This document shows, one piece after another, positions 16,173-56,064 of a stretch of DNA of 64,000 bases. This DNA comes from Desulfomonilia bacterium (GTDB lineage: Bacteria > Desulfobacterota > Desulfomonilia > UBA1062): assembly GCA_050014195.1 (NCBI GenBank), contig JBEKDT010000006.1, positions 128,001 through 192,000 on the forward strand, written 5' to 3'. Both the position numbers and the translations under genes were made by a program. Under the pieces are notes generated by a model. That model saw nothing but the letters and a program-made list of their open reading frames with translations. It ran no database searches and was not told the origin of the DNA. The first letter of the stretch is position 1. Every line of letters starts with the position of its first letter.

Positions 16173-18149
16173 TCAGTAGCTCTCGAAATCTTTATCGGCT
16201 TCATCGCCCTTAGATTCTCCATCATGGAGGTTGATGATTGCACCCGTCTTTTTAGCTTCTCCGTTATTCCTGCCTTTGATGACTGGAGGTATCTCATGGT
16301 GCACCTTCCCCACCTGGGGATTGGGGGACATGTGACCGATCTTTGCCGTCCTTGCTATTGCAGAGGCCTTATTCGCACCCTGCTTGTCGATTTTGAAGAA
16401 GGAAATGGACCCCTGGAGCTGGACCGCCTGGGATGAGAGCTCCTCGGAGGTGGATGACATCTCTTCGGCTGCAGAGGCATTCTGCTGCACCACCTGGTTG
16501 AGTTGCTGGATCGCGGAATTTATCTGGTTCGCACCGGTGTTCTGCTCGTTGCTCGCCGCAGTGATCTCCTGGACCAGTTGGGAGGTCTTCTGGATGTCGG
16601 GCACGATCTGAGAGAGGAGCTTGCCCGCCTTTTCAGCCACATCCACGCTGCTTACCGAGAGCTTGCTGATCTCGCCTGCGGCCTCTGCGGACCGCTCGGC
16701 AAGCCTTCTCACCGCTGCGGCCACTACCGCAAACCCCTTGCCGTGTTCCCCGGCACGGGCCGCCTCGATGGCGGCGTTTAAGGCCAGCAGGTCGGTCTGA
16801 CGGGCGATCTCCTCAACGATGTCAATCTTCTCCGCTATGGTCTTCATGGCCGAGACCGTCTCAAGTACGGCCTTGCCGCCCTCACGGGCATCTTCCGCCG
16901 ACTTGACGGCGATCTTCTCGGTCTGCTGGGCATTGTCCGCGTTCTGGCGGATGTTGGATGCCATCTGCTCCATGGAGGAAGATGCCTCCTCGGCAGCGGA
17001 GGCCTGCTCGCTTGCACCCTGGGACATCTCCTCGGCCGTGGAGCTCATCTGCTCGCTGCCTGCTGCCACATTGTCCGCTGCGTTCTTGACATCCTGAACA
17101 ACGTTTGAGAGCTTATCCACCATGTCTTGCAGAGAGATCATGAGTTTGTCTTGTTCGGAACGTTTCAGAACTTTAATGGTTAGATCACCGTTTGCGATCT
17201 TTTCAGCCGTCTCGGCCACATCATTCATGGCCTGAATGAGCATGTTGAGGTTGTTCTTGATGGTATTGAAATCGCCGTTGTAATTGTCGGTGATCTTGTC
17301 CGGGATATCTCCCTTGGATATCCGGTCCACATACTCGGCTGTCACATTCAGCGGCTTGATAAGGGCATCGAGGATATTGTTGACACCTTGCACAATACCC
17401 TGGAACTCGAAGTTGATCTTCTCAGGATCACCGCGTGTATCAAGCTTTCCTTCCAGGCATGCCTCGGTAAGGTGCTGTGTTTCATTCAAGATAGACTTTA
17501 TGATGTTGACTACGTTCTTCATTAAGATAGTACCAAGAACACCAGCAAGCAGGGCACCTAAAATGATAATAGATATCATGGTATTTGTGGCACGACTTGT
17601 TGTAGCCTGATTGTCCTCCATGGTCTTCTTGCCACTGTCGACATTGTATTTCGTGACATTATTAAGGGTGTCTTCAACTGCAGTATATTTTTTATCAAGA
17701 TCACCTAACAGGAGAGTAAGGGCCTCGGCTTTTTTATCAGCTTTAGCAAGATCGATACACTGGTTCGTCTCGCTGACAGCCAAATTCCTGGCATCAAGAT
17801 AGGTTTGCCAATTTTTCTTGTCTTGTTCATCCAGGTTTGTCTTGGCATAATCATCTTCGGTTTTTTTTATTGATTCGAGATCACCCTTAACTTGATCCTG
17901 CATCTTTAGTCTTTCAGAAGGGTCCGTCTTGATAAGCATATCACGGAGATCTACTTGAAGTGTCTGGATTTCTCGTCCAAGGTCACCAAGGGCGGCAATT
18001 GGTACGGTTACCTGCTCATAGAGAATGGTATCAGCATTGTCTATTTTCTTGATGTTCATGATGCCGCAAACACCAATCGCTAGGGAAATGATGATCATTA
18101 CTGCCAATGCACTGATAATTTTGGGCCCCATCTTCATATTTTTAAACAT
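16173..18149 (-). CDS. Methyl-accepting chemotaxis protein, four-helix-bundle sensor
   Basis: Two TMs flanking a helical periplasmic domain, HAMPs, MCP hairpin, C-terminal DFESY. Confidence 0.95.
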
Positions 18150-18642
18150 TGTTCTTCCCTCCTTGGTATGTATTCGTTGAATTACATGGATCTGACGGTG
18201 AATATCTTGTACAGCTCATAGCCTTATCCTTGTTCTTTTCTTCCATGGTGTCCGGCGGATCGTTCTCGTAGTGCAAGTGGTCGGCGCCAGCGGTCTTTGT
18301 ATGGCATTCATGTCCTAGAAGTATGCCGTTTACCTTTTCAATGAGGTCATAGTATGGAGTGATCCCCAGTATGCTTCCCATGATTTTACCCCGATCAAGA
18401 ATGAGATATGTGGGTGTACCCCTGGTGGAGTACTTTTCACTGAAGTAGGGGAACACGTCTTCCAGTGTGTAGTATACAGCTAGGCTCCCCTTGAAGTGAT
18501 CAGCAATGTGTTTGAGGGTTATGAGCTGATCCTGAAACTTATGGTCCCTTCGTATGCACGCAATAAGGATAGGGGCATGTGCCCTGTTCAGATCAGTAAT
18601 GGTATCTTGGGTAATCTGAGATACCTCGTATCTCGAATGCAT
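18142..18642 (-). CDS. Thioredoxin-fold protein lacking CxxC (CIRRD motif), copy A
   Basis: [10 protein letters not shown] at the active-site strand, RGTPTYLIL cis-Pro loop, GSILG; stop overlaps the MCP start. Confidence 0.7.
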
Positions 18643-18692
18643 CGCCTATACCCCCCTGGGGAAAGAACCTGTCTTTCCCGCGGTTCCTCCTA

Positions 18693-18709
18693 CTCAACAT
18701 GCGTGCCAT
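18693..18709 (-). promoter_or_regulatory. Sigma-54 (-24/-12)-like promoter A
   Basis: TGGCACGCATGTTGA against consensus TGGCACG-N4-TTGC (GA at -12), about 50 nt upstream of Trx-like A. Confidence 0.6.
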
Positions 18710-18799
18710 AGGGCCGGATGGATGGGGATTATCAGCAAACGATAATTATATTGGTAAGTTAAAATGAATTACGCTTTTGAAAGATGTGCAAACGGCTGG

Positions 18800-18844
18800 T
18801 GTAAAGTTACAGGAATTAACTGTAAGGAGAATGTAAGTTTTACA
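18800..18844. promoter_or_regulatory. Candidate activator sites (TGTAA-N-TTACA palindromes), copy A
   Basis: TGTAAAGTTACA (18800-18811) and TGTAAGTTTTACA (18832-18844), about 95-135 bp upstream of the -24 element. Confidence 0.55.
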
Positions 18845-20582: not shown

Positions 20583-20746
20583 GTGAGTCCGCCTTTGGTT
20601 ATGATTCAATTGCTATTAGATTATACCAGTTCATAGGAATCTTTTACAAAAGAAAGAATGCAGCATGGATGTGAAACCTTTTTCATACTGCAGCCCCCAG
20701 GCTCCAGCCCATAATTCAAGGGACGCATCTTTACCTGATCCCGCCG

Positions 20747-23700: not shown

Positions 23701-23764
23701 TCAGGTCAATGGCAATGATCCCATCATCCTCCACAATAAGGATGGTTTTTCCCCCCATGGTCAT
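20747..23764 (-). CDS. Hybrid sensor kinase REC-4xPAS-HisKA-HATPase-REC
   Basis: IVEDD receiver, four PAS units ending in DIT, AHDFNNIL, GTGLGL, C-terminal VVDDE receiver. Confidence 0.95.
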   Translation of the reverse strand: MTMGGKTILIVEDDGIIAIDLKETLSRLGYAVLDPVATGDRAIAAATDNRPDLVLMDVDLLGRLNGIEASETIRANLDIPVVYLTGYSRDPLLQQAKVTAPYGYLVKPVPDRELVATIEIALYRHNMDRKLKESEERYRKITDTMIDYIFTVTVKNRKAVETLHSHACVAVTGYTVEEFSDGLNLWITMVHQEDREAVMRQAEDILNGRSFKAIEHRIIRKDGKLRWVRNTPVPYHDRSGRLVSYDGIIQDITEKKQAEEKYQTIFEQAVEGIYQTTPEGRFLQANPSLARMLGYDSPEELVSTITDIGSQVYVDPSQRREVKRTLEENGTLSNYEARLRRRDGSIIWVSIGGATFRADYGSILYFQGSMVDITERKQAEEALKKSEEKFRNLFYNAEVGMFRTRIDGSEILDFNEQYLKIFGRTRKEMQGNPSVIHWADPGERDEMSRRLNAEGYVIDFECRMLDKQGKVRTCLTSLRLYQEQGILEGSIIDITERKQAEEEMMKLASAIEQAAECVVITDREGLIQYVNPAFERITGYSKEEAMGQNPRILKSGMQDEAFYKGLWETITSECTWSGRFVNRRKNGTLYHEDASISPIRDKAGNIVNFVAVKKDITKEMELEEQLLRSQKLEAIGTLAGGIAHDFNNILSAIIGFSELVKEEVPRKSPAYEHVMEVLHAGERARDLVKQILTFSHQVESRREPVKVQLIARETIKLLRSSIPKNITIIDRINPGAGPVDGDPAKIHQLIINLCTNAYHAMVPDGGDLTITLNTVNLDENYVQQLPPLKVGAHLRLIVNDTGYGMDEHTMKRIFDPFFTTKEKGKGTGLGLATVYGIVTELGGAITVDSNPGGGSTFSVYLPISGRLPAEDLPKEEYEEPTLHKKEHIMVVDDEESIIHFTRIMLDQLGYPVTSLTSSMDALMLFRSAPQRYDLVITDQVMPEMTGLQLSVELLKIRPELPIIIMTGYSESVDQDKAKAAGIREYIEKPFTKRLISQVIRRQMGE

Positions 23765-24060: not shown

Positions 24061-24357
24061 TCGTAGATCTCAAGATGAGATCGTCAGTGTATTTTCTCTC
24101 ATAGAGGGAATTATTTAAATGAGGGCTTGGCTCTCAGCCGCCCCCGATAAAACTGCTGACTACACCTTTAAGATATTGAGCAGGATTAATCCGAGCCATA
24201 TTCTTTATGATATCGATATTGGAGTGGAGATGTCGGGTGTCCAGCACCCACATGATATGACGTTTCTTATACGGGATACCTGCCCTGTCCATGTACTCGC
24301 ACGGGAAGATCTGTACCGTGACCGTCTTTATGTCATAATCTTTGCCGCACTCACAGA
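24054..24357. repeat. 304-bp direct repeat, copy 2
   Basis: Matches 9399-9702; left end carries the inverted repeat GATCTCA-AGA-TGAGATC. Confidence 0.95.
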
Positions 24358-26242
24358 TGGCTGCATGGAGCACATACCAGGGGACGGAGCTGTTCTGAGG
24401 CACAATAACCTTAATACTGTTGATCAGGTCGGAAAGATTAACGCCCCTGTCGCTCTGGTCGACGACAAAGTATGCTTTGGGATTGTTGTCATGGAATAAA
24501 GTATAGGAGCTGCATGTCCTTTTGAGCCCGTATTTTTTATAAATATCCCCGATGGATTCCCCGGGGCGTTTCGGTGAATCGAGACATAAGGCATCCACAA
24601 AGATGCCATCGGAGAGCTGCTTGTATGCAGCCCTGAGATTCTGGATGTCTTTGGGAGAGCTCTGTCTCATAGTCCAGCCCTTGGGCAGATCGGGAATTGA
24701 TTGGGGCAGATCTATGTTCAAATATGCAAAAATGTCCATAGAGAGGTGCGACGGGTTGTTCACTGCTTTATAGGCGTTGCTGAAAAAATTATTAGGGAAA
24801 CGGTTTTCAGGGGGGAAATAGATGATCATATAATCCATACCGATTGACGGCATCCGGGTGATACTGTCGAGATAGTTAAGTATCTGTTTCAGGACATATG
24901 GTCCGGTAATTTTCAGACCAATATCTTTGGTGGCAAGGTGGTTTACCAGCCATGACTTTTCATATGCCTTGATCAGAGAAACATGGCCATAGATCACACC
25001 ATTGCGCTCATACGTTAAATTCGCAAATATATCAGGACATTGATGGTACAGTTTTTTATATGTTTCTTTAAAATCGTCTTTGTACTGAGCGATGCTGGTG
25101 TATTTCTCCGGGTATATAAACCCGGACTCAAAGAAGAAGTTCCATAAGGATGCCATATCCACATCATAAGATACCCGTGCATAGGGGTCGTCGGCCCTTG
25201 ATATGACGTTGAACAGCTGATTGTAGGAACTAACATCAATATCGGTGATCGAAAAACCGTACTTGATACTGTTCTTTTTCTTCTTTTCTCCATAGACGAC
25301 CTGGACCGGGCACTTCAGATTGAGGCCGCCCGCAAACTCTATGAAGGCTTCATCAATAATCATGCCGGGCATGAGGAGCGACGAGTCTGATTCCACCATC
25401 ACGGAGAAGCCCGAAGAGTTGATGTCGACTATGTCATAGGAGACCCTCATCCCCGTCAGGGGATGCGTGAATTTTACTTCAGGGCTTGGAACGAGATTCA
25501 GACGCGGATTACGGTTTTTCCGCTCGCCGTATCTTTTCTGAGGAATATTCATGGGTGCGAGAACAATGGTTTTGCCCTGGTTCTCAGTACGGATGAGTTT
25601 GGACATACCCGAAAATATCAGCCTGCCACCACGCATAAGCTCTACTTTAATGGGCTCGTCGGTGGAGACCTGGGATTCGGATGTTGCCCATGGGATACCT
25701 TTCAATTCGATTCGCAGCCCTGCAGGATTGAACTCGTAAAGGGCTCCGGCATATTCGATGTCATCATGACTGACCCGTGCATTCACGTTTTGGCACTGAT
25801 ACCTTTTGGCATGACGGGCTTGATATATCACACCGGTCTTCCGAAGCTTGACATTTAATAGTCGTGATGTGATGAGAAGAGGATCCGCCTGCATCATTAT
25901 CACGGACTTTCCGTTGTCCACCAGGAGGCCCTTGAAAATGAAGTCTTCAAAGTCTTGGATGGATCCTTCCGGCAGCGAGAAAGTTACCTCGCTTCCGGTG
26001 CACGGCCCCGGGATTACCTTGAAGAGAAACTCCTCTTTGGTATGCGGGAAGATCATGTGTGCGAAAATTTGATCGTCAACAAAGTTCCTGAAATTCATTG
26101 CATTGATGAATTGTTTCTGATCAATGCTGGAGGAGAAAAATGGGGATCGCTTCAGGTCAGATCGCCTGAAAGGGATAAGGAAAGGGTTGTCAAGTAAAGA
26201 ATTTTCCTGGAGTTCTTTTCCGCCATGAACATCACTGCTCAT
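24134..26242 (-). CDS. Large PilZ-domain-containing protein with unassigned C-terminal domain
   Basis: RKNRNPR followed by DINSSG (RxxxR...DxxxxG); second degenerate PilZ-like segment (RHAKR...EFNPAG). Confidence 0.65.
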   Translation of the reverse strand: MSSDVHGGKELQENSLLDNPFLIPFRRSDLKRSPFFSSSIDQKQFINAMNFRNFVDDQIFAHMIFPHTKEEFLFKVIPGPCTGSEVTFSLPEGSIQDFEDFIFKGLLVDNGKSVIMMQADPLLITSRLLNVKLRKTGVIYQARHAKRYQCQNVNARVSHDDIEYAGALYEFNPAGLRIELKGIPWATSESQVSTDEPIKVELMRGGRLIFSGMSKLIRTENQGKTIVLAPMNIPQKRYGERKNRNPRLNLVPSPEVKFTHPLTGMRVSYDIVDINSSGFSVMVESDSSLLMPGMIIDEAFIEFAGGLNLKCPVQVVYGEKKKKNSIKYGFSITDIDVSSYNQLFNVISRADDPYARVSYDVDMASLWNFFFESGFIYPEKYTSIAQYKDDFKETYKKLYHQCPDIFANLTYERNGVIYGHVSLIKAYEKSWLVNHLATKDIGLKITGPYVLKQILNYLDSITRMPSIGMDYMIIYFPPENRFPNNFFSNAYKAVNNPSHLSMDIFAYLNIDLPQSIPDLPKGWTMRQSSPKDIQNLRAAYKQLSDGIFVDALCLDSPKRPGESIGDIYKKYGLKRTCSSYTLFHDNNPKAYFVVDQSDRGVNLSDLINSIKVIVPQNSSVPWYVLHAAICECGKDYDIKTVTVQIFPCEYMDRAGIPYKKRHIMWVLDTRHLHSNIDIIKNMARINPAQYLKGVVSSFIGGG

Positions 26243-26467: not shown

Positions 26468-29170
26468 ATGATTTCACATGGGGATGATATGAAAGATGAC
26501 AATAAGACAAACCAGCAGCTCATAGAAGAGTTATCAGAAGCACACCGGCGCATCGCTGAATTGGAAAATTCGGTATATGAGGGCAAACGCATGGAAGAGG
26601 CTATGAAAGGGAGCGAAGAGCGCTACCGAATCCTTGCCGAGAATGCCCATGATTTGATCTGGGTCTTCGACCTCAACTTCGGCTACACCTATGTGAGCCC
26701 ATCAGTCAAACATCTTAAGGGATATACTGTTGAAGAGGCTATGAAACTTAAGCTTCATGAAGTCCTCACGCCTGATTCCTACACGAAGGCAATGGAGATA
26801 TTAACAAAAGAACGTTTCCTCGAGGAGGCCGGGCAGCGGCATGGTCCTGACTGGTCAAAGACCATCGAGCTTGAGATGTTCCGGAAGGATGGCTCGAAAG
26901 TTTGGACAGAGGTTACGCTGAACCTTCTTTACAATGAAAAAGGCTGGATCAAAGGCATTATGGGGATTACCCGCGATATTTCCGAGCGCAAGCAGGTTGA
27001 GGAGGCACTCAGGGCTTCGGAGGCAAAGTATCACCGATTATATGACAGTATGACGGATGCCTTTGTCAGTACTGATATGGACGGTCAAGTAAAGGAATAT
27101 AATGAAACGTACAGGAACATGCTCGGCTATAAACCGGAAGAAATCAGCGCGCTTACCTATTCCGACCTTACCCCTGAGAAATGGCATGCGCTTGAAGCCG
27201 ACATTGTTGAAAAACAGGTTCTTCAAAGGGGGTATTCGGATATCTATGAAAAGGAATACCGTAAGCAAGATGGTACGGTTTTCCCTGTGGAGTTGCGGAT
27301 GTTCCTCCTCAAGGACGATGGCGGGAAACCCACCGGTATGTGGGCAATCGTACGTGATATCACCGGGCGCAGACAGGCTGAGGAAGAACTGAAGGACCAT
27401 CGTGACCATCTGGAAGATTTGGTCAAAGATCGCACACTTAAACTCACGAAGGCAAATGAGAAGCTTAAGCTGGAAATAGAGGAGCGCAAACAAATAGAGA
27501 AAACGTTAAAGAAGAGTGATGAAAAATACCGCAGCTATTTCTCCCTCACCGATGATGTTATGTTCTCCTATGATAGCCAGTTCCGGGTCTTAAGCGTCTC
27601 TCCGAACGTAGAGAGGGTCCTTGGGTACAAGCCCGAGGAACTGGTCGGGAAGTACTTTCAGGACCTAACAATGCTCCTGCATCCGGAAGACGTGGGGGAT
27701 GCTTTTGATAATGCCCTGCATGTGCTCTCTGGTAAGACAATCTATACCAACATTTACCGGTTTATCACCAAAGACGGGGAAGTGAAATTTGGGGAGGCAA
27801 ACGGTGTTCCGATCATTCGCGATGGCCGTGTTGTTGCGATGATCACCGTGGCCAGGGATATCACCAAGCGCATCGAGATGGAAAATTCACTGCAGGAAAG
27901 CGAGGAAAGATACCGTATCACCCTTCAGAGCATGCCGGATGCCGTGAGCATTATAAAAATCAAAGATATGCGATATCTCTATGTAAATGATACATTCTGC
28001 AAGATAACCGGATACTCCTTTGAAGAAACCATCGGGAAAACGCCCTTTGACCTGAATCTGTCTGTGAGTTCCGAAGATTTTGATTATTATATTAAGCTCA
28101 TAAAAAACGACGAATTGGTTGACAGCCTGGAGTGCCAGTGCCGGACAAAAGAAGGGAATATTTTAGATACCCTCGTATCCGCCAGGGCGGTACACTACAG
28201 CGGAGAAGACGGTATGGTCATGGTAATGACCGATATCACCGCTCTTATAGAGATCAAAGAAGAGAAGAAGAGGCTGGAGATTCAAACGCAGAAAATGGAG
28301 TCAATCGGAACACTGGCAAGCGGTATAGCCCATGATTTCAACGACATTCTGACAACCATTATCGGCTACACCAAGATGTCGATGAAAGATATCATGGACC
28401 TGACGAGGGGGGATAAAGACTTAAACGTAGTACACGCTGACCTCAATGAAGTGCGTAAAGCGGCTATCCGGGCGAGAGACCTTGTAAATCAGATCCTTGC
28501 CTTCAGCCGGCATGCGGAGAAGGAATATGTCCCGGTAGTGCTCGATTCTACCATACGTGAATCGCTTAAAATGTTGCGGCCGTCATTACCCGCAAACATC
28601 AAGATCCGTGAGATGCTTGCCCCTTCAGGACAGATCCTGGGAGATCCGGCTCAGATTCACCAGGTTATGACTAACCTTTGTACCAATGCAGCCCATGCTA
28701 TGGGTGAGACCGGGGGAGAATTGGAAGTGAGCCTTCAGAGAGTTTTTATCGACAGTGATGCCGCCCTTAATCTGGATGTACCGCCTGGACCTTATCTCAG
28801 GATGACGGTAAGGGATACCGGTCATGGAATGACCTCAAAGGTTATAGCACGAATCTATGACCCCTATTTTACCACCAAATGGAAAGGACATGGTACAGGT
28901 CTGGGGTTGTCGATTGTTCATGGGATTGTGAAAAGCCATGGAGGTGCAATCAGCTGTAAGAGCGCTCCGGGACAAGGAACCGCTTTTGATATTTATCTAC
29001 CCGAGCTCGGATTTAAAAGAGAGGTGGTGGAAGATCTCGTTGAGATGGCCGACATGGCCGGAAACGAGAGAATCCTTAACCTTGATGAAGAGCTCCCTCG
29101 TGTTGAGTTGATGAGCAAGGAGAAAGCGGATCCCGGGACACACGTTAAAGACAGAAACAAGCGGTATTAA
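26468..29170 (+). CDS. Multi-PAS sensor histidine kinase with vestigial receiver tail
   Basis: Four PAS units, AHDFNDIL, NLCTNA, GTGLGL; start may be 26489. Confidence 0.93.
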   Translation: MISHGDDMKDDNKTNQQLIEELSEAHRRIAELENSVYEGKRMEEAMKGSEERYRILAENAHDLIWVFDLNFGYTYVSPSVKHLKGYTVEEAMKLKLHEVLTPDSYTKAMEILTKERFLEEAGQRHGPDWSKTIELEMFRKDGSKVWTEVTLNLLYNEKGWIKGIMGITRDISERKQVEEALRASEAKYHRLYDSMTDAFVSTDMDGQVKEYNETYRNMLGYKPEEISALTYSDLTPEKWHALEADIVEKQVLQRGYSDIYEKEYRKQDGTVFPVELRMFLLKDDGGKPTGMWAIVRDITGRRQAEEELKDHRDHLEDLVKDRTLKLTKANEKLKLEIEERKQIEKTLKKSDEKYRSYFSLTDDVMFSYDSQFRVLSVSPNVERVLGYKPEELVGKYFQDLTMLLHPEDVGDAFDNALHVLSGKTIYTNIYRFITKDGEVKFGEANGVPIIRDGRVVAMITVARDITKRIEMENSLQESEERYRITLQSMPDAVSIIKIKDMRYLYVNDTFCKITGYSFEETIGKTPFDLNLSVSSEDFDYYIKLIKNDELVDSLECQCRTKEGNILDTLVSARAVHYSGEDGMVMVMTDITALIEIKEEKKRLEIQTQKMESIGTLASGIAHDFNDILTTIIGYTKMSMKDIMDLTRGDKDLNVVHADLNEVRKAAIRARDLVNQILAFSRHAEKEYVPVVLDSTIRESLKMLRPSLPANIKIREMLAPSGQILGDPAQIHQVMTNLCTNAAHAMGETGGELEVSLQRVFIDSDAALNLDVPPGPYLRMTVRDTGHGMTSKVIARIYDPYFTTKWKGHGTGLGLSIVHGIVKSHGGAISCKSAPGQGTAFDIYLPELGFKREVVEDLVEMADMAGNERILNLDEELPRVELMSKEKADPGTHVKDRNKRY

Positions 29171-29205
29171 GGTTCTCTTGATGGAAAAATATACCTATTT
29201 ACTTA

Positions 29206-41412: not shown

Positions 41413-41441
41413 ATAAGTGAACTTGTCCTCGCCCTTCATTC

Positions 41442-43147: not shown

Positions 43148-44082
43148 TGCAAAGCTCAAAGCCCATTCTGCTCGTTGCATTAGGCGGCAACGCCCTGATA
43201 AGGAAAGGCCAGCAAGGCACCATCGAGGAACAATTTGATAACCTCAGGGTGCCGATAAGCCAGATAGCCAGGCTCACGCGCGATTACCGCATCATCATCA
43301 CCCATGGGAACGGACCGCAGGTGGGCAATCTCCTGCTCCAGCAGGAATGCTGCAATGATGTGCCCAAGATGCCCCTGGAGATCCTGGTGGCACAGACCCA
43401 GGGCGCCATAGGATATATGATAGAGTCCACCCTTGACAGCGAGCTCATGCGCCAGGCGATTGCCGCCAGCAAGCCCCTGGTAAGCCTCATCAGCTATGTG
43501 GTGGTGGATGAGAACAGCCAGGCCTTCAGAGACCCCAGCAAGCCCATAGGTCCGGCCTTCACCGAGGATAAGGCCGGGACATTACCCTATCGTGTTAAAA
43601 AGACGGAGAAGGGGTTCCGCAGGGTTGTGGCATCTCCCGAGCCTCTCACCATTGTGGAGAAGAACGAGATCATGAAACTCATTGCGATGGATTTCGTGGT
43701 TATATGCTGTGGTGGGGGAGGGATACCGGTAGTCCGTGAGGGCAGGTCATTCGCCGGTGTGGACGCGGTCATCGACAAGGATCTCGCAAGTGCCAAGCTG
43801 GCCGTTGAAGTAGGCGTGGATACATTCATCATTGCTACCGATGTCCCCGGCGTTGCCATCAACTATGGAAGAGAAGACCAGCATTTTTTAAAGACCATGA
43901 CTACGACCCAGGCCGGTCGCTATAGGGAAGAAGGTCAATTCTCAGAAGGCTCCATGCTGCCCAAGATCCAGGCTGCAACTGCTTTTATTCATTCCGGGGG
44001 CAGAAGGGCCGTCATTACTGCAATCGAAGCAATTGAAGATGCAGTGGCAGGCCGGGCCGGCACCGAGATCACGAGGGGATAG
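43147..44082 (+). CDS. arcC: Carbamate kinase
   Basis: VALGGNAL, THGNGPQVG, KPIGP, RRVVASP, GGGGIPV, AVIDKD, GSMLPK. Confidence 0.95.
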   Translation: MQSSKPILLVALGGNALIRKGQQGTIEEQFDNLRVPISQIARLTRDYRIIITHGNGPQVGNLLLQQECCNDVPKMPLEILVAQTQGAIGYMIESTLDSELMRQAIAASKPLVSLISYVVVDENSQAFRDPSKPIGPAFTEDKAGTLPYRVKKTEKGFRRVVASPEPLTIVEKNEIMKLIAMDFVVICCGGGGIPVVREGRSFAGVDAVIDKDLASAKLAVEVGVDTFIIATDVPGVAINYGREDQHFLKTMTTTQAGRYREEGQFSEGSMLPKIQAATAFIHSGGRRAVITAIEAIEDAVAGRAGTEITRG

Positions 44083-44269
44083 CCCTAACTCTCTTCGCGG
44101 GGATCCGATAGTATTTTAGGAAATAAAAGTAGTTGTCTCGATCCATACATATCACATGAAGAATGGTATCCTGACTGAAGAGATCTCATGACGTAATATT
44201 CATAATTTCAGATGGGAAGGAAGCGGATATTTATCGCAGAGATCTATGCTTTTACTTCATAAAGAAATC

Positions 44270-46483
44270 TTAATGATTTTTAATCAATTCAATAAAATAA
44301 GAAGTATTTCTAATGTTAGCAAGATCAGGGTCCCTCTTGATCAGACCCCAATTGTTAAATCCCTTTTCAATTGACTGTTTCAGCCATTCAATAGATTTAT
44401 CAGTCATATTCTGCTTAGCATAGATGCATGCAATGTTATAGTAGACCTCTGGATTACCTGGCTGAATCCGCTGCATGTTCTTAAGCACATCTAAAGCCTG
44501 ATCGTACTTCTGAAACTTAGAATATATGAGCACAAGCCCAGACATGGCCTTCATATATTCTGGTTGAATTGAGATTGCTTTTTGATATTGGATAATGGCG
44601 TCATCATATTCTCCCATCTGAGAATAGAGATCACCAAGCCTTGCATGGTAAGTAGGATTTTGTGGTTCTGATTTCAATGATTCATTTAATAGGGATAGTT
44701 CGGCTTCAAACTTTTCCGGAGTAGCCTTTGCTTTTTCAAGATAACTCACCACCACATATTGATGTGGATCGATAAGCAGTGCTTCATTCAGTTGAAAAAT
44801 GGCTTCATGTAGTTTCCCTGTCAGCAACATGGCTTTTCCGAGATTAAAATGGGCCTGAAAGTCCATTGGGTTGAGCCTGAGCAACTCCTGGAATTGCTCG
44901 ATGGCCTCATCTGTTCTGCCCATCGATGCTAAAAGGAGCCCTAGATTATTGTGTATATTCATATTATTAGGATCTATCTGTACGCCTTTTGATAAATACT
45001 CGACAGCAGCTTTATCTTCTTTCTTCATTATATACGACATCCCGATACCATTATACGCTTCCGAGGTCGGTCTTATCCGCAAGGCCTGATGGAATTCTTT
45101 GATGGCCTCATCCAGCTGTCCCTTCTTTATCAGTACAAGCCCCAGATTAGTGTAAGCCATGTAGTTATTCTTAGTGACAGCGATTGTGTGCCTGCAGATA
45201 GTTTCGCTGTTTTTCCAAAAGCCGACCTGCACCCATGCAACCGCTATCAGTAGTACCAGAACGCCGACAGATATCACTCCAAGGACCGCCTTGCCCCAGC
45301 GCCAACGGCAGAAGAGATCGCTGAATCCCCACACGATCATGAGAAATATCCCAATAAGCGGTATGTATGTGTACCTGTCTGCCATCGACTGAGATCCGAC
45401 TTGCACGATCCCAATAACTGGGACCAGGGTACCGATGTACCAGAGCCAGCCCACTACAAGATAAGGAAACCTAAACGCAAAAAACAGGACCGCAACTGTG
45501 ACAAACAAAAGAAATATGGCGCACAAAATAACTGCCAGGGGATGAATGACCTCAGGATACGCGTAGAAGTTTGCTAAATTGAACGGCCATATCATCTTCC
45601 AGAGATAAGAAGCATAAGAGATGATGACATTGGCCATTTTGAAACCGAAATCTAACTCACTCAGGGAACTTAACGATCCCGCACTTTTTTGGGCAAACAT
45701 GGTAATACCGCTTGAGATCATTGCAAACACAATGAGGGGTATCTTTTCAAGAACAAGGGCTGAAAGTCTTGAGTGCCATCCTACAGATTCCGCTGTTCCC
45801 TTGTCCTGGTTTTTGTTGAGATCTCCTGCCTGATGAATTTCCAGACGATTTAACGGCCAGAAATCCAAAAGAAGCAGTACGAAGGGCAAGGTCACAATCA
45901 TGGGTTTGGACAGAAGCCCCAGGATAAAGAAGAGAATCAAAACAAGATATCTCTTAATAGTACGGTTCTGAACATACCAGAGATAACTCATCATGGTGAG
46001 CATCCAGAAAAAAGTGCTCAGCACATCTTTGCGCTCTGCGATCCATGCAACCGACTCAACATGCAACGGATGCACGGCAAAAAGAGCAGCCACCGCAGCG
46101 CTCCTCCAGGATGCAGCGGTCATCTTCTCCAGAACGAGAAAGAGAAGTATGGTATTGAGAATGTGAAAGATCACGTTGGTAATGTGGTGCAGGCCCGGAT
46201 TGAGGAGACCGAAGATCTGTACATCAAGCATATGAGAAATCCAGGTTAGTGGATGCCAGTTCGATGCATAAAACGATGAAAATGCCCATCTGATTCCTTC
46301 AAGACTCACCCCATTTCTGAGGGTATAGTTGTCCAAAATATATTGAGGATCATCCATGTTAATGTAGTCAAAACCTACTACTTGCCAATACACTGTGAGT
46401 GTTGCAGCTGTTAACAGTAGGCAGATCCAAACCTTAAGGTTTGGATTTCTTGAGTTGCTTTTGGCATCCAGCTCAATTTTCAT
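44270..46483 (-). CDS. TMTC-like membrane glycosyltransferase (GT-C fold) with TPRs, paralog 2
   Basis: MDD loop, NWHPLTWISHMLD, HPLHVESVAWIAERKDVLS; same C-terminus DPDLANIRNTS..ELIKNH as paralog 1; AT-rich. Confidence 0.85.
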   Translation of the reverse strand: MKIELDAKSNSRNPNLKVWICLLLTAATLTVYWQVVGFDYINMDDPQYILDNYTLRNGVSLEGIRWAFSSFYASNWHPLTWISHMLDVQIFGLLNPGLHHITNVIFHILNTILLFLVLEKMTAASWRSAAVAALFAVHPLHVESVAWIAERKDVLSTFFWMLTMMSYLWYVQNRTIKRYLVLILFFILGLLSKPMIVTLPFVLLLLDFWPLNRLEIHQAGDLNKNQDKGTAESVGWHSRLSALVLEKIPLIVFAMISSGITMFAQKSAGSLSSLSELDFGFKMANVIISYASYLWKMIWPFNLANFYAYPEVIHPLAVILCAIFLLFVTVAVLFFAFRFPYLVVGWLWYIGTLVPVIGIVQVGSQSMADRYTYIPLIGIFLMIVWGFSDLFCRWRWGKAVLGVISVGVLVLLIAVAWVQVGFWKNSETICRHTIAVTKNNYMAYTNLGLVLIKKGQLDEAIKEFHQALRIRPTSEAYNGIGMSYIMKKEDKAAVEYLSKGVQIDPNNMNIHNNLGLLLASMGRTDEAIEQFQELLRLNPMDFQAHFNLGKAMLLTGKLHEAIFQLNEALLIDPHQYVVVSYLEKAKATPEKFEAELSLLNESLKSEPQNPTYHARLGDLYSQMGEYDDAIIQYQKAISIQPEYMKAMSGLVLIYSKFQKYDQALDVLKNMQRIQPGNPEVYYNIACIYAKQNMTDKSIEWLKQSIEKGFNNWGLIKRDPDLANIRNTSYFIELIKNH

Positions 46484-47069
46484 GAGGTCATCACCATATC
46501 AATTATTAAATTAATTGGTATTAATTTGATTGTAAATATTCAAATAGTAATTCAGAGTAGTTTGTACCTCAAACTACTCCCAGACACAAATATATTGACA
46601 TGAACCTATTATAAATTAATAATATTAATGATTACATTCTTTAATTCTTTGATTATTGTTTATTTAGAATATAGTTAATTATTTTTTTTCAAATACTATC
46701 ATCTCGATAATACCCTGAAAACTGAAGATGTTGTGTGCCAACCTGTGGTGTTTGAAATAAGATGCCCTATGTGTAGATTTCGTGCCACCGACATGGAGCG
46801 CCTTGCAGCATAGATTGTAAACCAAGATCATCAGTTTTGAGGCTCTTCGAAACATCTATAAATCGCAGTTATCAATGGTTCATAGAAGAAAGAAAGGTGT
46901 CATAAAATGTCAGAAAGAATCCTTCATGACTCTAAGCGGTAGAGCACCTTATGAATATGCAAAGACAAAGTCTGGGGCTCATGAAGTGTTACTTTCCCCG
47001 GTGCGAATAAGACCTGAAGTGTATCCCCTAAAGTGATCCTCAATTAAATTGCACTATTTTGGACAAGAG

Positions 47070-47098
47070 TGGATATTTATCGAGAAATGCTGTATAAT
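47070..47098 (+). promoter_or_regulatory. Putative sigma-70 promoter of the kinase/activator pair
   Basis: TGGATA-N17-TATAAT about 60 nt upstream of the ATG. Confidence 0.55.
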
Positions 47099-47160
47099 AT
47101 CTAATCTGATAGAAGCTCTTTTCATAAAGAAGACCCTGGTTACGTCTGGAGGTGGTGGGT

Positions 47161-49626
47161 ATGGCTGGACCCACAGACAGCACGGAGAAAAACAGGATCT
47201 GCAGGCTTGAGAGTGAATTGAATAAGTCACAGCTCACGATTGCTCAACTCCTTGAAAAAGAGCGCACGCTTTCCAATGTGATAGAAGCCATCCCCATCGC
47301 AGCCTTTGTCATCGACAGAACGCACCGGGTTACCCACTGTAACAGGGCCTATGAATACCTCACCGGATTCAGAAAAGAGGATCTCCTCAATACCAATAAA
47401 CAGTGGTCCCCCTTCTATACCCGAAAGAAGAAGACCCTTGCTGACCTTGTCGTGGACAATGCAGCAAGGCTGCAGATCGAAGATTACTATGGGAAGGATT
47501 CCCGTAGGATCAGCCACAAAGATGGGGCGTACGCGGTTGAGCTCTTTTTCCCCCATCTCGGTAATAAGGGGAAATGGATCTTCTGCACGGCCGCCCCCCT
47601 CAAGGACCGGGACGGGGTTACCATAGGTGCAGTGGAAACGCTCCAGGACCTCACCTCCCGAAAGGAGGTGGAAGAGGCCCTTTTCAAGTCGGAAGAGAAA
47701 TCCCGGATCATTCTCGACCAGATCGAAGACGGTTACTACGAGGTTGACCTTCGGGGAAGGGTCATATTTTTCAACGACGCCTTCTGCACAATCATCGGGT
47801 ATTCTAAGACAGACATGGTGGGCATGTCGTACAAGGTATTTGCTGGCCCTAAGTACATGAAAAAGATTTTCAGCATGTACAACCGGGTTTTCAGGACCGG
47901 CAAGCCCGTCAAGGCCTTCGAGTGGGAGATCGTCAGGAAGGATGGAACAAAACGGCTCGTGGAGTTCTCCGTGTCCCTCATGAGGAACGCATCAAATGCA
48001 CCGGTGGGGTTCCGTGGGATCGTGCGCGATGTCACGGATGCCAGGAGTGCGGAGAGGGAGCTGCGCAGGTACAAGAACCGCCTCGAAGAGCTCGTGCAGG
48101 AGCGGACCTCCGAACTAAACAAAACCAACAAGAGGCTCACCAGGGTGATCGACAACCTGAGAAGGACGGAGAAGAATCTGGTGAAGCAGCAAAATTTCTC
48201 CGAGAGTATCATCCGTTCGCTGCCGTGCATCTTCTATATGATCGATAAATCCGGCCAGTTCATTAAATGGAACAAAAAAACTGAGGAGATCGGGGGTTAT
48301 TCGACAAAGGAAATGAACGACGTTCATGCCCTCGACTTCTTCCCGGAGAGGGAAAAATCAAATATCGCAGACAAAATCAGTGAGGTATTCAGCAGGGGCA
48401 GGGCGTTTACCAACACCGTCGTACTGGGTAGGGACGGCCGCGAAACCCCTCACTACTTTACCGGGGTGCGTACGCATATCGACGGGAAGAGGTACCAGGT
48501 AGGGGTGGGGATCGACACCTCTGACGCGGTCCGTGCGGAGAAGGCGCTCAGGGAGAGTGAAGAGAAGCTCACCGCAATCCTTGGCTCGGTCACTGACTAC
48601 ATGATCATCGTCGATAGGTCGTACTCAGTGGTATGGGCCAATGAAAAGGCGCGCTCCCTTTTCCCGGACCTGATTAACAACAAATGCCACCAGGTCATCC
48701 ATGGCAGCAAGCTGCCTTGCAATCCGTGCATCGGCGAAGTGTGTTTCCGTAAGGGGGGCACTTATGAGCGAGAAGGTGCCTGCATCATCCCTGTCAGTGG
48801 GGAAAGGATGGATTTCTGGAGCACCACGAGCATCGTGACCAGGCATGGGGACGGCTCGCCTGAGCTTATCCTGGAGCTCTTCAGGGACACCACGGAAAAG
48901 AAAGCATACGAGGCCGAAGCCGTGCGTGTGGGCCAGCTCGCATCGCTGGGCGAGCTCGCTGCCGGAGTGGCCCATGAGATCAACAACCCCATTAATGGGA
49001 TACTCAACTATGGACAGATACTTCTTGAGAAAACAGGGAGAGCATCTGCAGACCATGAGATCCTGCAGAGGATAGTCCAAGAGGGGGAGCGGGTTGCGGG
49101 TATCGTCCATAATCTCCTTTCATTCGCCCGGGTAAGAAAGGATGAGTTCGTATCTACCTCACTGGATGAGGTTATCAGTTCCTGTCTCGGGCTTGTGGCC
49201 AAGCAGCTGGCCAATGACGGGATCTCACTGAGGATCGACACGGATGTCGGGCTCCCGAGGCTCTATTGCAACAGCCAGCAGCTTCAGCAGGTGTTCCTGA
49301 ACGTCATCAGCAACGCCCGGTATGCACTGAATCAGAAGTACAGGGGGGCCCACAGTAACAAGATCATCGAGATCAGCGCAGAAAAGACACGGATGAAGAG
49401 TATGAAGGCCCTGAGGATTATCGTGTGCGATCATGGCACGGGCATATCGCCGGAGATAATCGACAAGATCGGCTCCCCCTTCTTCACCACGAAACCCATG
49501 AATGAAGGAACAGGGCTCGGGCTGAACATCAGCCATGGCATCATCAAAAACCATGGGGGCAGGCTGTGGTTCGACAGCACCGTCGGTGAATTCACCAAGG
49601 TCATCATCGACCTGCCGGCACGTTAA
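47161..49626 (+). CDS. Cytoplasmic multi-PAS histidine kinase (NtrB-like)
   Basis: Four PAS units, the last Cys-rich (KCHQVIHGSKLPCNPC); AHEINNP, GTGLGL; GGAGG before the ATG. Confidence 0.95.
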   Translation: MAGPTDSTEKNRICRLESELNKSQLTIAQLLEKERTLSNVIEAIPIAAFVIDRTHRVTHCNRAYEYLTGFRKEDLLNTNKQWSPFYTRKKKTLADLVVDNAARLQIEDYYGKDSRRISHKDGAYAVELFFPHLGNKGKWIFCTAAPLKDRDGVTIGAVETLQDLTSRKEVEEALFKSEEKSRIILDQIEDGYYEVDLRGRVIFFNDAFCTIIGYSKTDMVGMSYKVFAGPKYMKKIFSMYNRVFRTGKPVKAFEWEIVRKDGTKRLVEFSVSLMRNASNAPVGFRGIVRDVTDARSAERELRRYKNRLEELVQERTSELNKTNKRLTRVIDNLRRTEKNLVKQQNFSESIIRSLPCIFYMIDKSGQFIKWNKKTEEIGGYSTKEMNDVHALDFFPEREKSNIADKISEVFSRGRAFTNTVVLGRDGRETPHYFTGVRTHIDGKRYQVGVGIDTSDAVRAEKALRESEEKLTAILGSVTDYMIIVDRSYSVVWANEKARSLFPDLINNKCHQVIHGSKLPCNPCIGEVCFRKGGTYEREGACIIPVSGERMDFWSTTSIVTRHGDGSPELILELFRDTTEKKAYEAEAVRVGQLASLGELAAGVAHEINNPINGILNYGQILLEKTGRASADHEILQRIVQEGERVAGIVHNLLSFARVRKDEFVSTSLDEVISSCLGLVAKQLANDGISLRIDTDVGLPRLYCNSQQLQQVFLNVISNARYALNQKYRGAHSNKIIEISAEKTRMKSMKALRIIVCDHGTGISPEIIDKIGSPFFTTKPMNEGTGLGLNISHGIIKNHGGRLWFDSTVGEFTKVIIDLPAR

Positions 49627-49640
49627 ACGAGGGGGACATC

Positions 49641-51386
49641 ATGGCAGAGCCTGAGAAGAAGAGACTCAAAAAAAAGATCCTCGTCGTGGATGACGAGGAA
49701 AGCATCAGGTTCACCTTCTCCCACTTCCTGAAGGAAGAGGGGTATGATGTCGTCACCGCATCGGACCTCAAGAGCGCCCGGAGGATCCTGTTCCACACCC
49801 AGGTGGACCTCATCTTCATCGATATTGTGCTCGGAGGAGAATCTGGTCTGGACTTGCTCAAGCAGGTGAAGTCGCTGCATCTGAAGCATCCTGTGATCAT
49901 GATAACGGGGAATCCTACCTTGGACAATGCGACCGATGCGCTCAGGCTCGGGGCCTTTGATTTCCTGCTAAAGCCTGTGCGGAAGGACGATCTGCTGAGG
50001 GCAGTCTCCCTGGCCATCAGTCACAAGGCTCTCATCGATGAGAAAGAGCTTGTCACGAGGGAGAAGGAGAAATACCGCACGAACCTGGAGGCGATCTTCC
50101 AGAGTGTGAACGAAGTGATCATAACGGTTGATGAGGACATGCACGTGATCGATGCCAACAGACATATCGAGACCATCTGCAGCATATCCATCAAAAAAAT
50201 CACCGGGCAGGCCTTTGATGATTGTTTCACGAAATGCAGCCACAACTGCTCCAAGGTGATAAGGGAAACCCTGAAACAGAAAAAGCCCATACGGGAGCTC
50301 CGGATGGAATGCGAGCACTATGACCGGCCCCGGCAGGTGGTGCTGCTCTCATGTTCCCCCCTGATGGACGATGAAGGTGCATACATGGGGGCTGTTCTTG
50401 TAATCCGTGATATCACCAAGCTCCACGATCTCGAGGAGGAGCTGAGAGGCAGGAGCAAGTTCCAAAACATTATAGGAAAAAGCAAGAAAGTTCAGAATAT
50501 CTTCAAACTTGTCGAGGCCCTCTCGGATCTCGGGACCACGGTTCTCATAACCGGCGAGAGCGGGACCGGCAAGGAGCTTGTGGCAAACGCCCTTCATTAT
50601 TCGGGAAAGAGGGCGGGAAAACCCTTCGTGAAGGTGAACTGTGCAGCACTGGCCGAGAACCTGCTCGAGAGCGAGCTCTTCGGACACGCCAGGGGGGCGT
50701 TCACGGGTGCGATAAAGGACAAGCAGGGCCGATTCGAACTGGCAAAGGATGGCACCATTTTACTGGATGAGATCGGAGACATTCCACCGCGCATCCAGTC
50801 CAAGCTCCTGCGGGTCCTTGAGGCAAAGACCTACGAGCGCGTGGGCGATGCCGCCCCGAAAAAGACCGAGGCCAGGGTCATAGCCAGCACGAACCGCAAC
50901 CTGCGGGAAAAGGTCAAGTCGGGGGAATTCAGGGAAGACCTGTACTACAGGCTCAACGTGGTCGAGATCGAGCTCCCGCCCATGCGGGAGAGACTTGAAG
51001 ACATCCCCCTGCTTGTGGATCATTTCTGCTCCATATTTGAAACTACGTTCAAAAAGTTGATCAACGGCATCTCAGACGAAGTGATGAGGATATTCATCAA
51101 TTACCGCTGGCCCGGAAACGTGAGGGAGCTGGAGCATGCCATAGAGCACGCGTTCGTACTGTGCAACGATCGTGTCATCCTGCCGGAGCACCTCCCTCCA
51201 TACATGCTCGGCTCTGCGCTGAAGACTGGTACTGGGGATAACCAGTCCGGTGGTGAGATGGAGCTCATCCTTGATATCCTGACGCAGACCGACTGGAACA
51301 TCGCCAAGGCCGCGCGTATGCTCTCCATGAGCAGGCCCACCCTGTATCGAAAGATGCGCGAGCATGGTATCGGCAAGCAAGGATAA
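49641..51386 (+). CDS. Sigma-54-dependent activator REC-PAS-AAA+-HTH, paralog B
   Basis: VVDDE receiver, PAS, GESGTGKE, GAFTGA, WPGNVREL, HTH SRPTLY; collinear with 18840-20582. Confidence 0.95.
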   Translation: MAEPEKKRLKKKILVVDDEESIRFTFSHFLKEEGYDVVTASDLKSARRILFHTQVDLIFIDIVLGGESGLDLLKQVKSLHLKHPVIMITGNPTLDNATDALRLGAFDFLLKPVRKDDLLRAVSLAISHKALIDEKELVTREKEKYRTNLEAIFQSVNEVIITVDEDMHVIDANRHIETICSISIKKITGQAFDDCFTKCSHNCSKVIRETLKQKKPIRELRMECEHYDRPRQVVLLSCSPLMDDEGAYMGAVLVIRDITKLHDLEEELRGRSKFQNIIGKSKKVQNIFKLVEALSDLGTTVLITGESGTGKELVANALHYSGKRAGKPFVKVNCAALAENLLESELFGHARGAFTGAIKDKQGRFELAKDGTILLDEIGDIPPRIQSKLLRVLEAKTYERVGDAAPKKTEARVIASTNRNLREKVKSGEFREDLYYRLNVVEIELPPMRERLEDIPLLVDHFCSIFETTFKKLINGISDEVMRIFINYRWPGNVRELEHAIEHAFVLCNDRVILPEHLPPYMLGSALKTGTGDNQSGGEMELILDILTQTDWNIAKAARMLSMSRPTLYRKMREHGIGKQG

Positions 51387-51442
51387 GGCGATTAAGTATG
51401 ATCTCATAGGGGCAATTACATCATAATAAAACACTATAATTA

Positions 51443-51483
51443 TTACACTTGTGTAAATTACACTCGTGTAAAGATTTAACACA
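51443..51483. promoter_or_regulatory. Candidate activator sites (overlapping GTGTAA/TTACAC palindromes), copy B
   Basis: TTACACTTGTGTAAATTACACTCGTGTAAAGATTTAACACA, about 75-115 bp upstream of the -24 element. Confidence 0.55.
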
Positions 51484-51555
51484 TATCGAGTGCATATCCG
51501 CCCTACTGCTTTTGCAACCAACTTAAATCCCGAAAGATATCTCGTCATACCCCTC

Positions 51556-51572
51556 TTGGCACGAAGTTTTCA
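51556..51572 (+). promoter_or_regulatory. Sigma-54 (-24/-12)-like promoter B
   Basis: TTGGCACGAAGTTTTCA (perfect -24, TC at -12), about 70 nt upstream of Trx-like B. Confidence 0.55.
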
Positions 51573-51643
51573 TTAGGAAACTATCAGGAGCCCTTCGGGG
51601 CATTAGTTTCTTAAAGCGATTAATTTTGCCGTGGTGTGGTGAC

Positions 51644-52009
51644 ATGAAGAGAAGAGTGAAACGGGAATATCCCATCAAGCTTATTAAGTACAACGAGTTT
51701 GACCACGAAATCGATTCGGCGGGCAAACCGGTCCTCATGCTGTGCATTCGCAGGGATTACGAGTTCAGCAGCCAGACGGATCTGATCAGGGATGTGCTCG
51801 GCAGGATGGTTCAAGGATTTCCCATAGACCTGAAGGTATGCCTGGTGGACGAAGAGTCCCGGCTGGCGCTCAAAGACAAGCTTGATCTTCAGGGCAGCCC
51901 TGCCTTCCTGCTCTTCGAAAAAGGCGAGGAAAAGAACCGCCTGCTGGGTGTTGCGGACGAGGAGCAGCTCAGGGGCTTTCTCAGCAGCACGCTGGGCTGG
52001 AACTTGTAG
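51644..52009 (+). CDS. Thioredoxin-fold protein lacking CxxC (CIRRD motif), copy B
   Basis: EFDHEIDSAGKPVLMLCIRRD, QGSPAFLLFEKGEEKNRLLG (Trx cis-Pro hairpin pattern). Confidence 0.78.
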   Translation: MKRRVKREYPIKLIKYNEFDHEIDSAGKPVLMLCIRRDYEFSSQTDLIRDVLGRMVQGFPIDLKVCLVDEESRLALKDKLDLQGSPAFLLFEKGEEKNRLLGVADEEQLRGFLSSTLGWNL

Positions 52010-56061: not shown

Positions 56062-56064
56062 AGA

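Follow-up and report, generated by a model that had tools for sequence, protein, structure and literature searches.

A sigma-54 regulatory cassette was examined in a stretch of 64,000 nucleotides from a Desulfomonilia bacterium (positions 128,001 to 192,000 of contig JBEKDT010000006.1, hereafter the window), where it occurs once on the minus strand (copy A) and once on the plus strand (copy B). Each copy consists of a multi-PAS sensor kinase, a sigma-54 activator with a receiver domain (REC) and a cysteine-bearing PAS domain (Cys-PAS), a spacer with palindromes and a -24/-12 box, and a gene for a small thioredoxin-like (Trx-like) protein, followed by further genes (the cargo) of different kinds. 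The activator and the Trx-like gene were found side by side in most related loci of the class and of the phylum sample. The proposed explanation is a conserved, self-contained cassette in which the Trx-like protein acts on the activator; for the full model, binding included, which is drawn by analogy, the evidence was judged evenly balanced.

Linkage of the activator and the small gene

A profile was constructed from the small proteins of copies A and B and of a third copy (C) in the same genome, and the neighbours of the family members were then tallied, as the initial annotation had proposed. In a large protein collection, the profile retrieved 52 clusters, all unnamed or hypothetical, and the few with a named source were Desulfomonilia metagenome bins. 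When 122 genomes of the class were searched, only the window's own family yielded full-length matches.

The class-level set comprised 35 foreign loci, or 38 with the three own copies. An orthologous activator (56–93% identity) was located 5' of the Trx-like gene on the same strand in 33 of the 35 foreign loci, and it was directly adjacent in 31. In two loci (L041 and L044), the activator lay 2.2–3.0 kb 5' of the Trx-like gene, with inserted genes before the palindromes. One further locus (L071) contained a doubtful family member.

The insert in L044 (G096:C3) carries CN_hydrolase and DUF4440 genes, and that in L041 (G105:C5) two unknown reverse open reading frames (ORFs). Both loci are of the B type, and the unit of enhancer, promoter and Trx-like gene remained intact despite the insertion of 2–3 kb.

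For the reciprocal search, the Cys-PAS segment of activator B was used as the query, yielding 38 strong matches in the class. A Trx-like match adjoined 35 of these 38 activators, including one on a split contig and one 3.6 kb off, while one more activator was cut by the contig end (L118).

At the level of the phylum, 401 genomes were sampled, and strong matches (E < 1e-27) outside the window's family were obtained in 10 of them; the weaker matches were ordinary thioredoxins. Among the 12 phylum loci, an activator with 54–60% identity was located directly 5' in eight, behind one small ORF in one, and 2.6–4.4 kb away in two, with no activator in the remaining one. The pair was kept in 9 of the 12 loci, and one locus belongs to the cultured Desulfatibacillum alkenivorans DSM 16219.

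Promoters and palindromes

The spacers showed a common layout. Palindromes follow the stop codon of the activator gene, then an AT-rich stretch, and then the -24/-12 promoter. The box is of the type TGGCA-N6-TTG, with TGGCAC-N5-TTGA/TTTC in copies A and B, and both of these spacers contain TGGCACG. A sigma-54-like box of the pattern TGGCA[CT]-N5-TTG with a score of at least 11 was detected in 34 of the 38 loci, including the three own copies, a score that shuffled sequences reached in 8% of cases. The box lay 59–133 nt (59–110 nt in 32 of the 34 loci) 5' of the tblastn match start or the ATG, whichever anchored the scan. In 34 of 38 loci, the Trx-like gene is, by position, the first gene past the candidate enhancer and the -24/-12 box. 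The genome encodes sigma-54 itself, with a match to PF04552 (rpoN) above the cut-off at C1:447228-447704.

The palindromes differed between the clades. TGTAACA/TGTTACA sites were characteristic of the C type and related loci, TGTAA-N2-3-TTACA of the A type, and two copies of TTACAC-N2-GTGTAA of the B-type clade, in which the sites were kept in L040-L044. Within the 4.2-Mb genome, TTACAC-NN-GTGTAA had two matches, both in the spacer of copy B, and TGTAA-N2-3-TTACA had five, two of which lie in the spacer of copy A, 32 bp apart. In copy A, the palindrome TGTAAAACTTACA overlaps the stop codon of the activator gene, and the box TGGCACGCATGTTGA begins 66 nt 5' of the ATG of the Trx-like gene.

A sigma-70 scan of the copy A spacer gave one chance-level match. 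Neither a sigma-70-like nor a terminator-like site was detected at 51300-52100 around the copy B spacer, and Rfam gave no match in this spacer and leader.

Variable cargo

For the 35 foreign loci of the class, the cargo consisted of chemotaxis genes in 25 and of acyl-CoA dehydrogenase-like (ACAD) and aldehyde:ferredoxin oxidoreductase (AOR) genes in five; none was recognized by BLAST in three, and two had too little sequence. ACAD and AOR were kept 3' of the Trx-like gene in all five B-type loci. At the phylum level, the cargo comprised a Liv-type ABC transporter, a methyl-accepting chemotaxis protein (MCP) with CheA, HGD-D enzymes, a set of ACAD, thiolase, 3-hydroxyacyl-CoA dehydrogenase (3HCDH) and CoA ligase, a thiolase with 3HCDH, and a CoA ligase with a peptide ABC transporter. 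The linkage, the boxes and the change of cargo support the earlier proposal that the cassette is portable, with an activator that would drive the Trx-like gene together with variable cargo. In the own genome, the three insulated copies would each govern one operon, in two cases for chemotaxis receptors and in the third for acyl-CoA/AOR/ATP-dependent reductase functions.

The Trx-like protein could also serve the cargo as a chaperone or assembly factor, in the way that HyaE serves a hydrogenase subunit. Its gene is positioned for co-transcription with the cargo and in copy A overlaps the MCP gene. Matches to HyaE (PF07449) were also present in 18 of the 52 family members, the best with an E value of 1.8e-4, but they remained below the cut-off (14.5 bits for copy B against 22), and the Pfam scan of the neighbours of copies A and B revealed no adjacent hydrogenase genes. 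Against such a role, the cargo is of many kinds (dCache MCP-CheW-CheR, ACAD/AOR, thiolase/3HCDH, Liv-type and peptide ABC transporters, HGD-D), and the activator and promoter are the sole constant neighbours. A function in the cargo was accordingly regarded as unlikely, and the activator remains the preferred partner of the small protein.

The small thioredoxin-fold protein

Across the copies, the Trx-like genes encode about 120–170 aa. The AlphaFold2 model of the copy B protein, calculated from a 52-sequence alignment, had a pLDDT of 78.8, and its strands and helices follow one another as in thioredoxin. Foldseek matched it to many solved thioredoxins (E ≈ 2e-6, TM 0.6–0.72, about 20% identity), and the Atlas structure search agreed. 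The 46 matches listed within ranks 1–50 were thioredoxins, Trx-like or Trx-related domains, fusions, and designed proteins of that fold.

In a profile-profile alignment (hhalign) against 17 canonical thioredoxins from the examined genomes, the relationship was recovered with a probability of 98% and an E value of 1.7e-13. The segment PVLMLC was aligned with PVLVDF, placing the conserved cysteine on the buried phenylalanine that follows the conserved aspartate. In place of W-C-G-P-C, copy B has F-S-S-Q-T, and no cysteine was present at the CxxC positions.

The Pfam Thioredoxin family (PF00085) was approached without being reached. With a cut-off of 23.5 bits, the copy B protein scored 21.5 when read from the TTG and 20.7 when read from the ATG, the copy A protein had no match at an E value of 0.001 or better, and 40 of the 52 members had sub-threshold matches. 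NCBIfam gave no match for the small proteins.

A wide profile search retrieved 942 representative proteins at E ≤ 0.001, of which 279 were at ≤ 1e-10; the best 150 of the 942 were listed, and 140 were aligned for the motif. These 140 shared L-[LVI]-A-C-[ILM]-[RH]-x-[DG]-x-[ED]-[FY] and G-T-P-T-[FY]-L, and the cis-Pro loop G-x-P was retained in 139–140. Among the close family, R36, D38, G94 and L101-G102 were nearly invariant, and R36, D38, G84, P86 and G102 were conserved across clades with only 22–38% identity. The dN/dS values of 10 ortholog pairs ranged from 0.09 to 0.42, with 0.09–0.22 for the copy B protein against its orthologs. The Trx-like gene is real and under purifying selection. 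According to the model and the alignments, its product is predicted to have a thioredoxin fold that has lost the redox site and kept the substrate-holding surface of thioredoxins.

The initial annotation had proposed a redox- or metal-sensing cassette with the CIRRD thioredoxin as a partner, and a related possibility is a redox-active or metal-handling monothiol protein that reduces, resolves or shares a cluster with the cysteines of the activator PAS domain. The cysteine occurs without exception in the 52 closest members, the fold and cis-Pro loop are retained, and the activator PAS domain itself has three to four conserved cysteines. The position of the cysteine on the core phenylalanine of the VDF strand argues against this, as do the empty CGPC positions. 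Among the 140 aligned representatives, the cysteine was moreover replaced in 29 (by Y, F, W, V or another residue, mostly Y, F and W), as is typical of a buried residue, and a CxxC beginning at this cysteine occurred in two. Because the CIRRD cysteine aligns with a core phenylalanine and not with CxxC, the protein is probably redox-dead; a monothiol partner is improbable, and so is any reduction, resolution or cluster sharing on its part. The earlier redox reading was not supported, and a redox-inactive partner of the activator is preferred.

The C-termini varied among the types. C-type proteins have a conserved tail ending in K-[RK]-[RQ]-G-I-I after a variable linker, and the C-termini of the A-type and B-type proteins differ from it.

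Activators of the Cys-PAS subfamily

Activators A and B matched PF00158 with E values of 1.7e-68 and 3.8e-68, and GAFTGA was present in both according to the alignment. A receiver domain (PF00072) was found in all three own activators, and a kinase gene lies directly 5' of each. The best NCBIfam matches were partial (AtoC, NtrC, ZraR and PrdR) and all far below the equivalog cut-offs, as illustrated by 426 bits for AtoC against a cut-off of 714.

In the PAS domain adjoining AAA+, C203 and C224 were present in all 41 aligned activators, C199 in 40 and C180 in 35. The N-terminus varied across lineages between REC-PAS, PAS-PAS and three PAS domains. The activator core is constant (Cys-PAS with 3–4 cysteines, AAA+ with GAFTGA, and HTH_8), and the input modules are variable. 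The best match of the activator PAS domain to solved PAS structures had an E value of 0.0044, and no close relative was found among them. Because of the four-cysteine pattern, the PAS cysteine cluster is a more likely redox or metal input than the Trx-like protein, and sigma-54 control could thereby have a new kind of input, based on Fe-S or a metal.

The variability of the N-terminus also bears on a phosphorelay role, in which the Trx-like protein would bind the receiver domain of the activator or of the hybrid kinase, comparable to the role of the thioredoxin-like domains of KaiB and SasA in two-component signalling. A natural fusion is consistent with such binding: the metagenome protein P0193 (239 aa) joins a family member (residues 13–110) to a receiver domain (residues 115–225). 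A stand-alone REC gene was also located directly 3' of the Trx-like gene in L064, L071 and L073, and a weak family member was present among kinase and REC genes in L115. However, the downstream REC genes may be CheY-like chemotaxis cargo, and six of the nine phylum-level activators beside a Trx-like gene contain no receiver domain (L104, L107, L109-L112). A KaiB-like reading of the small protein was also considered; the best structural matches were ordinary thioredoxins, and neither KaiB nor SasA was among the 46 Foldseek matches listed (ranks 1–50). A phosphorelay role was therefore rated as doubtful at best, and the constant PAS-AAA+ core is preferred as the site of action.

With regard to other fusions, P0087, P0123 and P0173 were considered as multi-domain members of the family and rejected as repeats of ordinary thioredoxin domains. 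A search for long proteins revealed no fused forms of at least 330 aa, which is weak evidence.

Three copies in one genome

Copy C was found on contig C1 (locus L008) when the own genome was searched with the small proteins. Its kinase is a hybrid multi-PAS protein of 1302 aa, the spacer after its activator contains TGTAACA/TGTTACA sites and TGGCATGCTTCTTGT, and its Trx-like gene encodes 134 aa with CIRDD, followed by MCP(dCache_1)-CheW-CheR-CheD-CheB-MCP-STAS-REC. A member of the Trx-like family was located within 197–257 bp 3' of each of the three activators.

The ORF listing and Pfam bore out the gene order that had been noted at both places in the window. Likewise, the TGGCACG boxes and the palindromes of the TGTAA/TTACA type were recovered in both spacers (197 bp in copy A; 239 or 257 bp in copy B), as were the 8-nt overlap with the MCP gene in copy A and the 44-nt gap to the acyl-CoA cluster in copy B.

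The two copies had further been described as diverged paralogs that keep all parts, and this held for two of the parts. The activators showed identities of 52% (A and B), 59% (A and C) and 54% (B and C), and the small proteins of copies A and B 29% across 83 aa (E = 4e-11). Judged by these values, activators A and B are true paralogs and the small proteins distant ones. Other activators of the genome had 32–46% identity to the cassette activators and never aligned across REC; they aligned mostly from AAA+ to HTH, and four of them from about residue 108–145 on.

The kinases did not follow this pattern. Kinases A and B were 21% identical and differed in architecture; their likeness is that of generic PAS and histidine kinase domains, and the kinase is not a duplicated part between these copies. 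Kinases A and C, in contrast, were 40% identical across 936 aa, for which reason copies A and C are paralogs of the whole cassette. What copy B has in common with the other two is limited to its activator, its small gene and the layout of its promoter.

A link between taxis and catabolism through the two copies had also been suggested, and it was not sustained. Since the kinases and palindromes differ among the three copies, these probably form separate circuits.

Proposed mechanism and points against it

In the proposed model, the activator would bind the palindromes just 3' of its own gene, remodel the sigma-54 polymerase at the -24/-12 box and open the promoter, from which the Trx-like protein would be the first product. 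This protein would then act on the constant PAS-AAA+ core of the activator, either in feedback or in co-sensing. The contact is predicted to involve the conserved surface near the former active-site loop (R36 and D38) and the cis-Pro loop. The receiver domain would be fed by the adjacent multi-PAS kinase in the own genome; in other lineages it is replaced by extra PAS domains. The activator is proposed as the target because its core and the promoter are the sole constant neighbours of the small gene, whereas cargo and inputs change.

Several observations weigh against this model. In one of the 35 foreign class loci (L056), just a remnant of the activator 3' end was kept, and two of the 38 Cys-PAS activators (L117 and L119) have no Trx-like gene. 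Because of these three loci, the pairing is not obligatory. The census was limited to 401 sampled genomes of the phylum, and kin loci are not independent of one another. The trees of the activators and the Trx-like proteins had the same clades, and a correlation as high as the observed one arose in none of 2000 Mantel permutations, but adjacent genes are expected to have congruent trees even if their products do not interact. When activator domains were compared separately with the Trx-like distances, the mirror-tree correlations were 0.75 (REC), 0.74 (PAS), 0.79 (AAA+) and 0.63 (HTH), and neither these nor the partial correlations of the four domains singled out a contact domain.

The exceptional loci were arranged as follows. 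In L056 (G099:C127, about 9400-9800), an HTH-coding remnant follows a 1582-aa kinase ORF, and the palindromes, a TGGCAT box and the Trx-like gene are kept. In L117 (G118:C192, 3306-4953), the B-like activator is 64% identical and the palindromes and a TGGCAT box are kept; in place of the Trx-like gene, there is a short ORF (about 40 aa) and then a gene resembling FAD-type oxidoreductases. This natural variant without the partner is suited to comparison.

That the small gene is a hitchhiker, unlinked to the regulator and moving with promoter and leader, is very improbable, for while the conserved unit does take in the operon's promoter and 5' end and the gene is dispensable in L117 and L119, selection acts on the protein itself (the dN/dS range given above), the same five residues persist across the divergent clades, and the gene has persisted in different families of the phylum although the cargo was exchanged repeatedly.

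Action of the Trx-like protein on the activator is the explanation retained here. On a broader and more tentative reading, these proteins may constitute a new class of co-regulators, dead thioredoxin-fold partners of Cys-PAS activators that close a feedback loop in a plug-in cassette, which the Desulfobacterota would have set ahead of operons for chemotaxis, fatty acids, aromatic or acyl-CoA compounds and transport.

Comparison with known systems

The cassette activators resemble the NtrC-family two-component activators in having REC, AAA+ with GAFTGA and HTH_8, with palindromes upstream of a -24/-12 promoter. They differ in the cysteine-bearing PAS domain inserted between REC and AAA+, and in the position of the enhancer directly 3' of the activator's own stop codon, with a Trx-fold gene next.

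Only a few accessory proteins are known to tune sigma-54 activators, which serve as model molecular machines. Among enhancer-binding proteins, operon-encoded modulators occur in the pairs PspA-PspF, HrpV-HrpS, FleN-FleQ, NifL-NifA and MphX-MphR. The logic of the cassette would be the same, with a small protein encoded beside or within the activator regulon and feeding back. The Trx-like protein, however, is unrelated to these modulators in sequence and fold, and its binding is predicted by analogy.

With thioredoxin (PF00085), the small protein shares the fold and the cis-Pro loop, and it differs in the absence of CxxC, the sub-threshold Pfam matches and the cysteine at the core strand. Redox-inactive proteins of the HyaE type likewise have a thioredoxin fold without catalytic cysteines, which serves to bind proteins. 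In the present family, the matches to HyaE are weak and below the cut-off, the context is not that of hydrogenases, and the putative partner is a transcription activator.

BamVW of Geobacter metallireducens is reportedly a kinase and sigma-54 regulator for benzoate genes. By this description, it is similar to copy B, as both place a kinase and a sigma-54 response regulator beside genes of anaerobic aromatic or acyl-CoA catabolism. The BamVW system is not known to include a Trx-like gene.

No description of a thioredoxin-fold partner of a sigma-54 activator was encountered in the literature searched, with most subscription journals outside its scope. The components are of known kinds (an NtrC-family activator and a thioredoxin fold), and their fixed pairing and cassette-like reuse appear new.

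An activator subfamily that comes as a whole with the same small partner gene offers a testable new layer of control, and experiments are feasible in the cultured D. alkenivorans, which carries the pair. In uncultured wetland relatives of sulfate reducers, the pairing helps to predict operons switched by one signal (chemotaxis receptors, beta-oxidation and ATP-dependent reductases). The cassette also represents a compact, orthogonal sensor-promoter unit for anaerobes. The annotation "thioredoxin family protein" on Trx-like genes is misleading.

Organization of the loci

The features of the three copies are collected in Table 1.

Table 1. Features of the cassette copies; positions of copies A and B refer to the window.
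Feature	Position	Strand	Evidence
Copy B sensor kinase, 824 aa	47152..49626	+	Pfam: 3 PAS, HisKA, HATPase_c; no REC
Copy B sigma-54 activator, 581 aa	49641..51386	+	Pfam: REC, Cys-PAS, AAA+, HTH_8; C180, C199, C203, C224
Copy B candidate enhancer, two tandem 14-bp palindromes TTACACTTGTGTAA and TTACACTCGTGTAA	51443..51471	+	Sequence, genome scan
Copy B sigma-54 type -24/-12 box TGGCACGAAGTTTTCA	51557..51572	+	Sequence, scoring
Copy B protein of predicted thioredoxin fold, no CxxC, CIRRD, 121 aa from ATG	51644..52009	+	AlphaFold2, Foldseek, hhalign, dN/dS
Copy B cargo operon	52054..62872	+	Pfam, NCBIfam
Copy A hybrid sensor kinase, 1005 aa	20747..23764	-	Pfam: REC, 4 PAS, HisKA, HATPase_c, REC
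Copy A sigma-54 activator, 589 aa	18840..20609	-	Pfam: REC, Cys-PAS, AAA+ (GAFTGA), HTH_8; C199, C203, C224
Copy A candidate enhancer, palindromes TGTAAAACTTACA and TGTAACTTTACA	18800..18844	-	Sequence, genome scan
Copy A sigma-54 type -24/-12 box TGGCACGCATGTTGA	18694..18708	-	Sequence
Copy A protein of predicted thioredoxin fold, no CxxC, CIRRD, 166 aa, variable C-terminal tail	18142..18642	-	ORF, family profile
Copy A cargo: MCP (4HB_MCP_1/HAMP_2), CheW, MCP (Cache/HAMP_2)	12810..18149	-	Pfam
Copy C, third cassette copy (L008 = G000:C1:362000-381000)	3372-17896		Search of own genome

In copy B, the ORF list begins the Trx-like ORF at TTG 51626, and the spacer measures 239 bp to this codon, or 257 bp if the ATG at 51644 is taken as the start. 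From the end of the Trx-like gene, 44 nt separate it from the ACAD gene at 52054. The cargo continues with a 140-aa ORF, an SCP2-like ORF, AOR and an acyl-CoA ligase, followed by genes for two HGD-D/BzdN-O-like subunits, two BcrAD-type ATPases and a MinD/ParA-like ATPase. The interval between ACAD and AOR (53371-54176) holds the 140-aa ORF, which has no family match, and the second ORF, of 120 aa, with a weak match to the SCP2 lipid-transfer family (E = 2.3e-5); both ORF positions are kept in B-type loci.

Kinase B, activator B and the junction between them are covered by short contigs of RNA libraries from four wetland metatranscriptome runs. In total, 94 RNA contigs were aligned, 79 of them at 95–99% identity and 12 at 99% or above. 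The interval 51404-52504, from the spacer through the Trx-like gene into the beginning of ACAD, was covered by no RNA contig; this gap is not evidence of silence, and RNA contigs cannot reveal a transcription start site.

The G+C content was 0.40–0.46 at 8001-12000 and 44001-48000, compared with about 0.50–0.57 elsewhere in the window. The second of these low-G+C stretches lies just 5' of copy B and contains the gene of a 737-aa TPR protein (44270-46483).

In copy A, the spacer between the activator and the Trx-like gene is 197 bp long. The ATG of the first MCP gene is at 18149, giving an 8-nt overlap with the end of the Trx-like gene. The CheW ORF, listed at 15494-16297, overlaps the 3' end of the MCP gene (16173-18149) by 125 nt; its CheW domain begins at residue 105, and the real start of CheW is probably further downstream.

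Between copies A and B, another multi-PAS histidine kinase (900 aa, 4 PAS) is encoded at 26468-29170. There is no response regulator adjacent to it, and its neighbour encodes a 702-aa protein (24134-26242) with a weak PilZ match.

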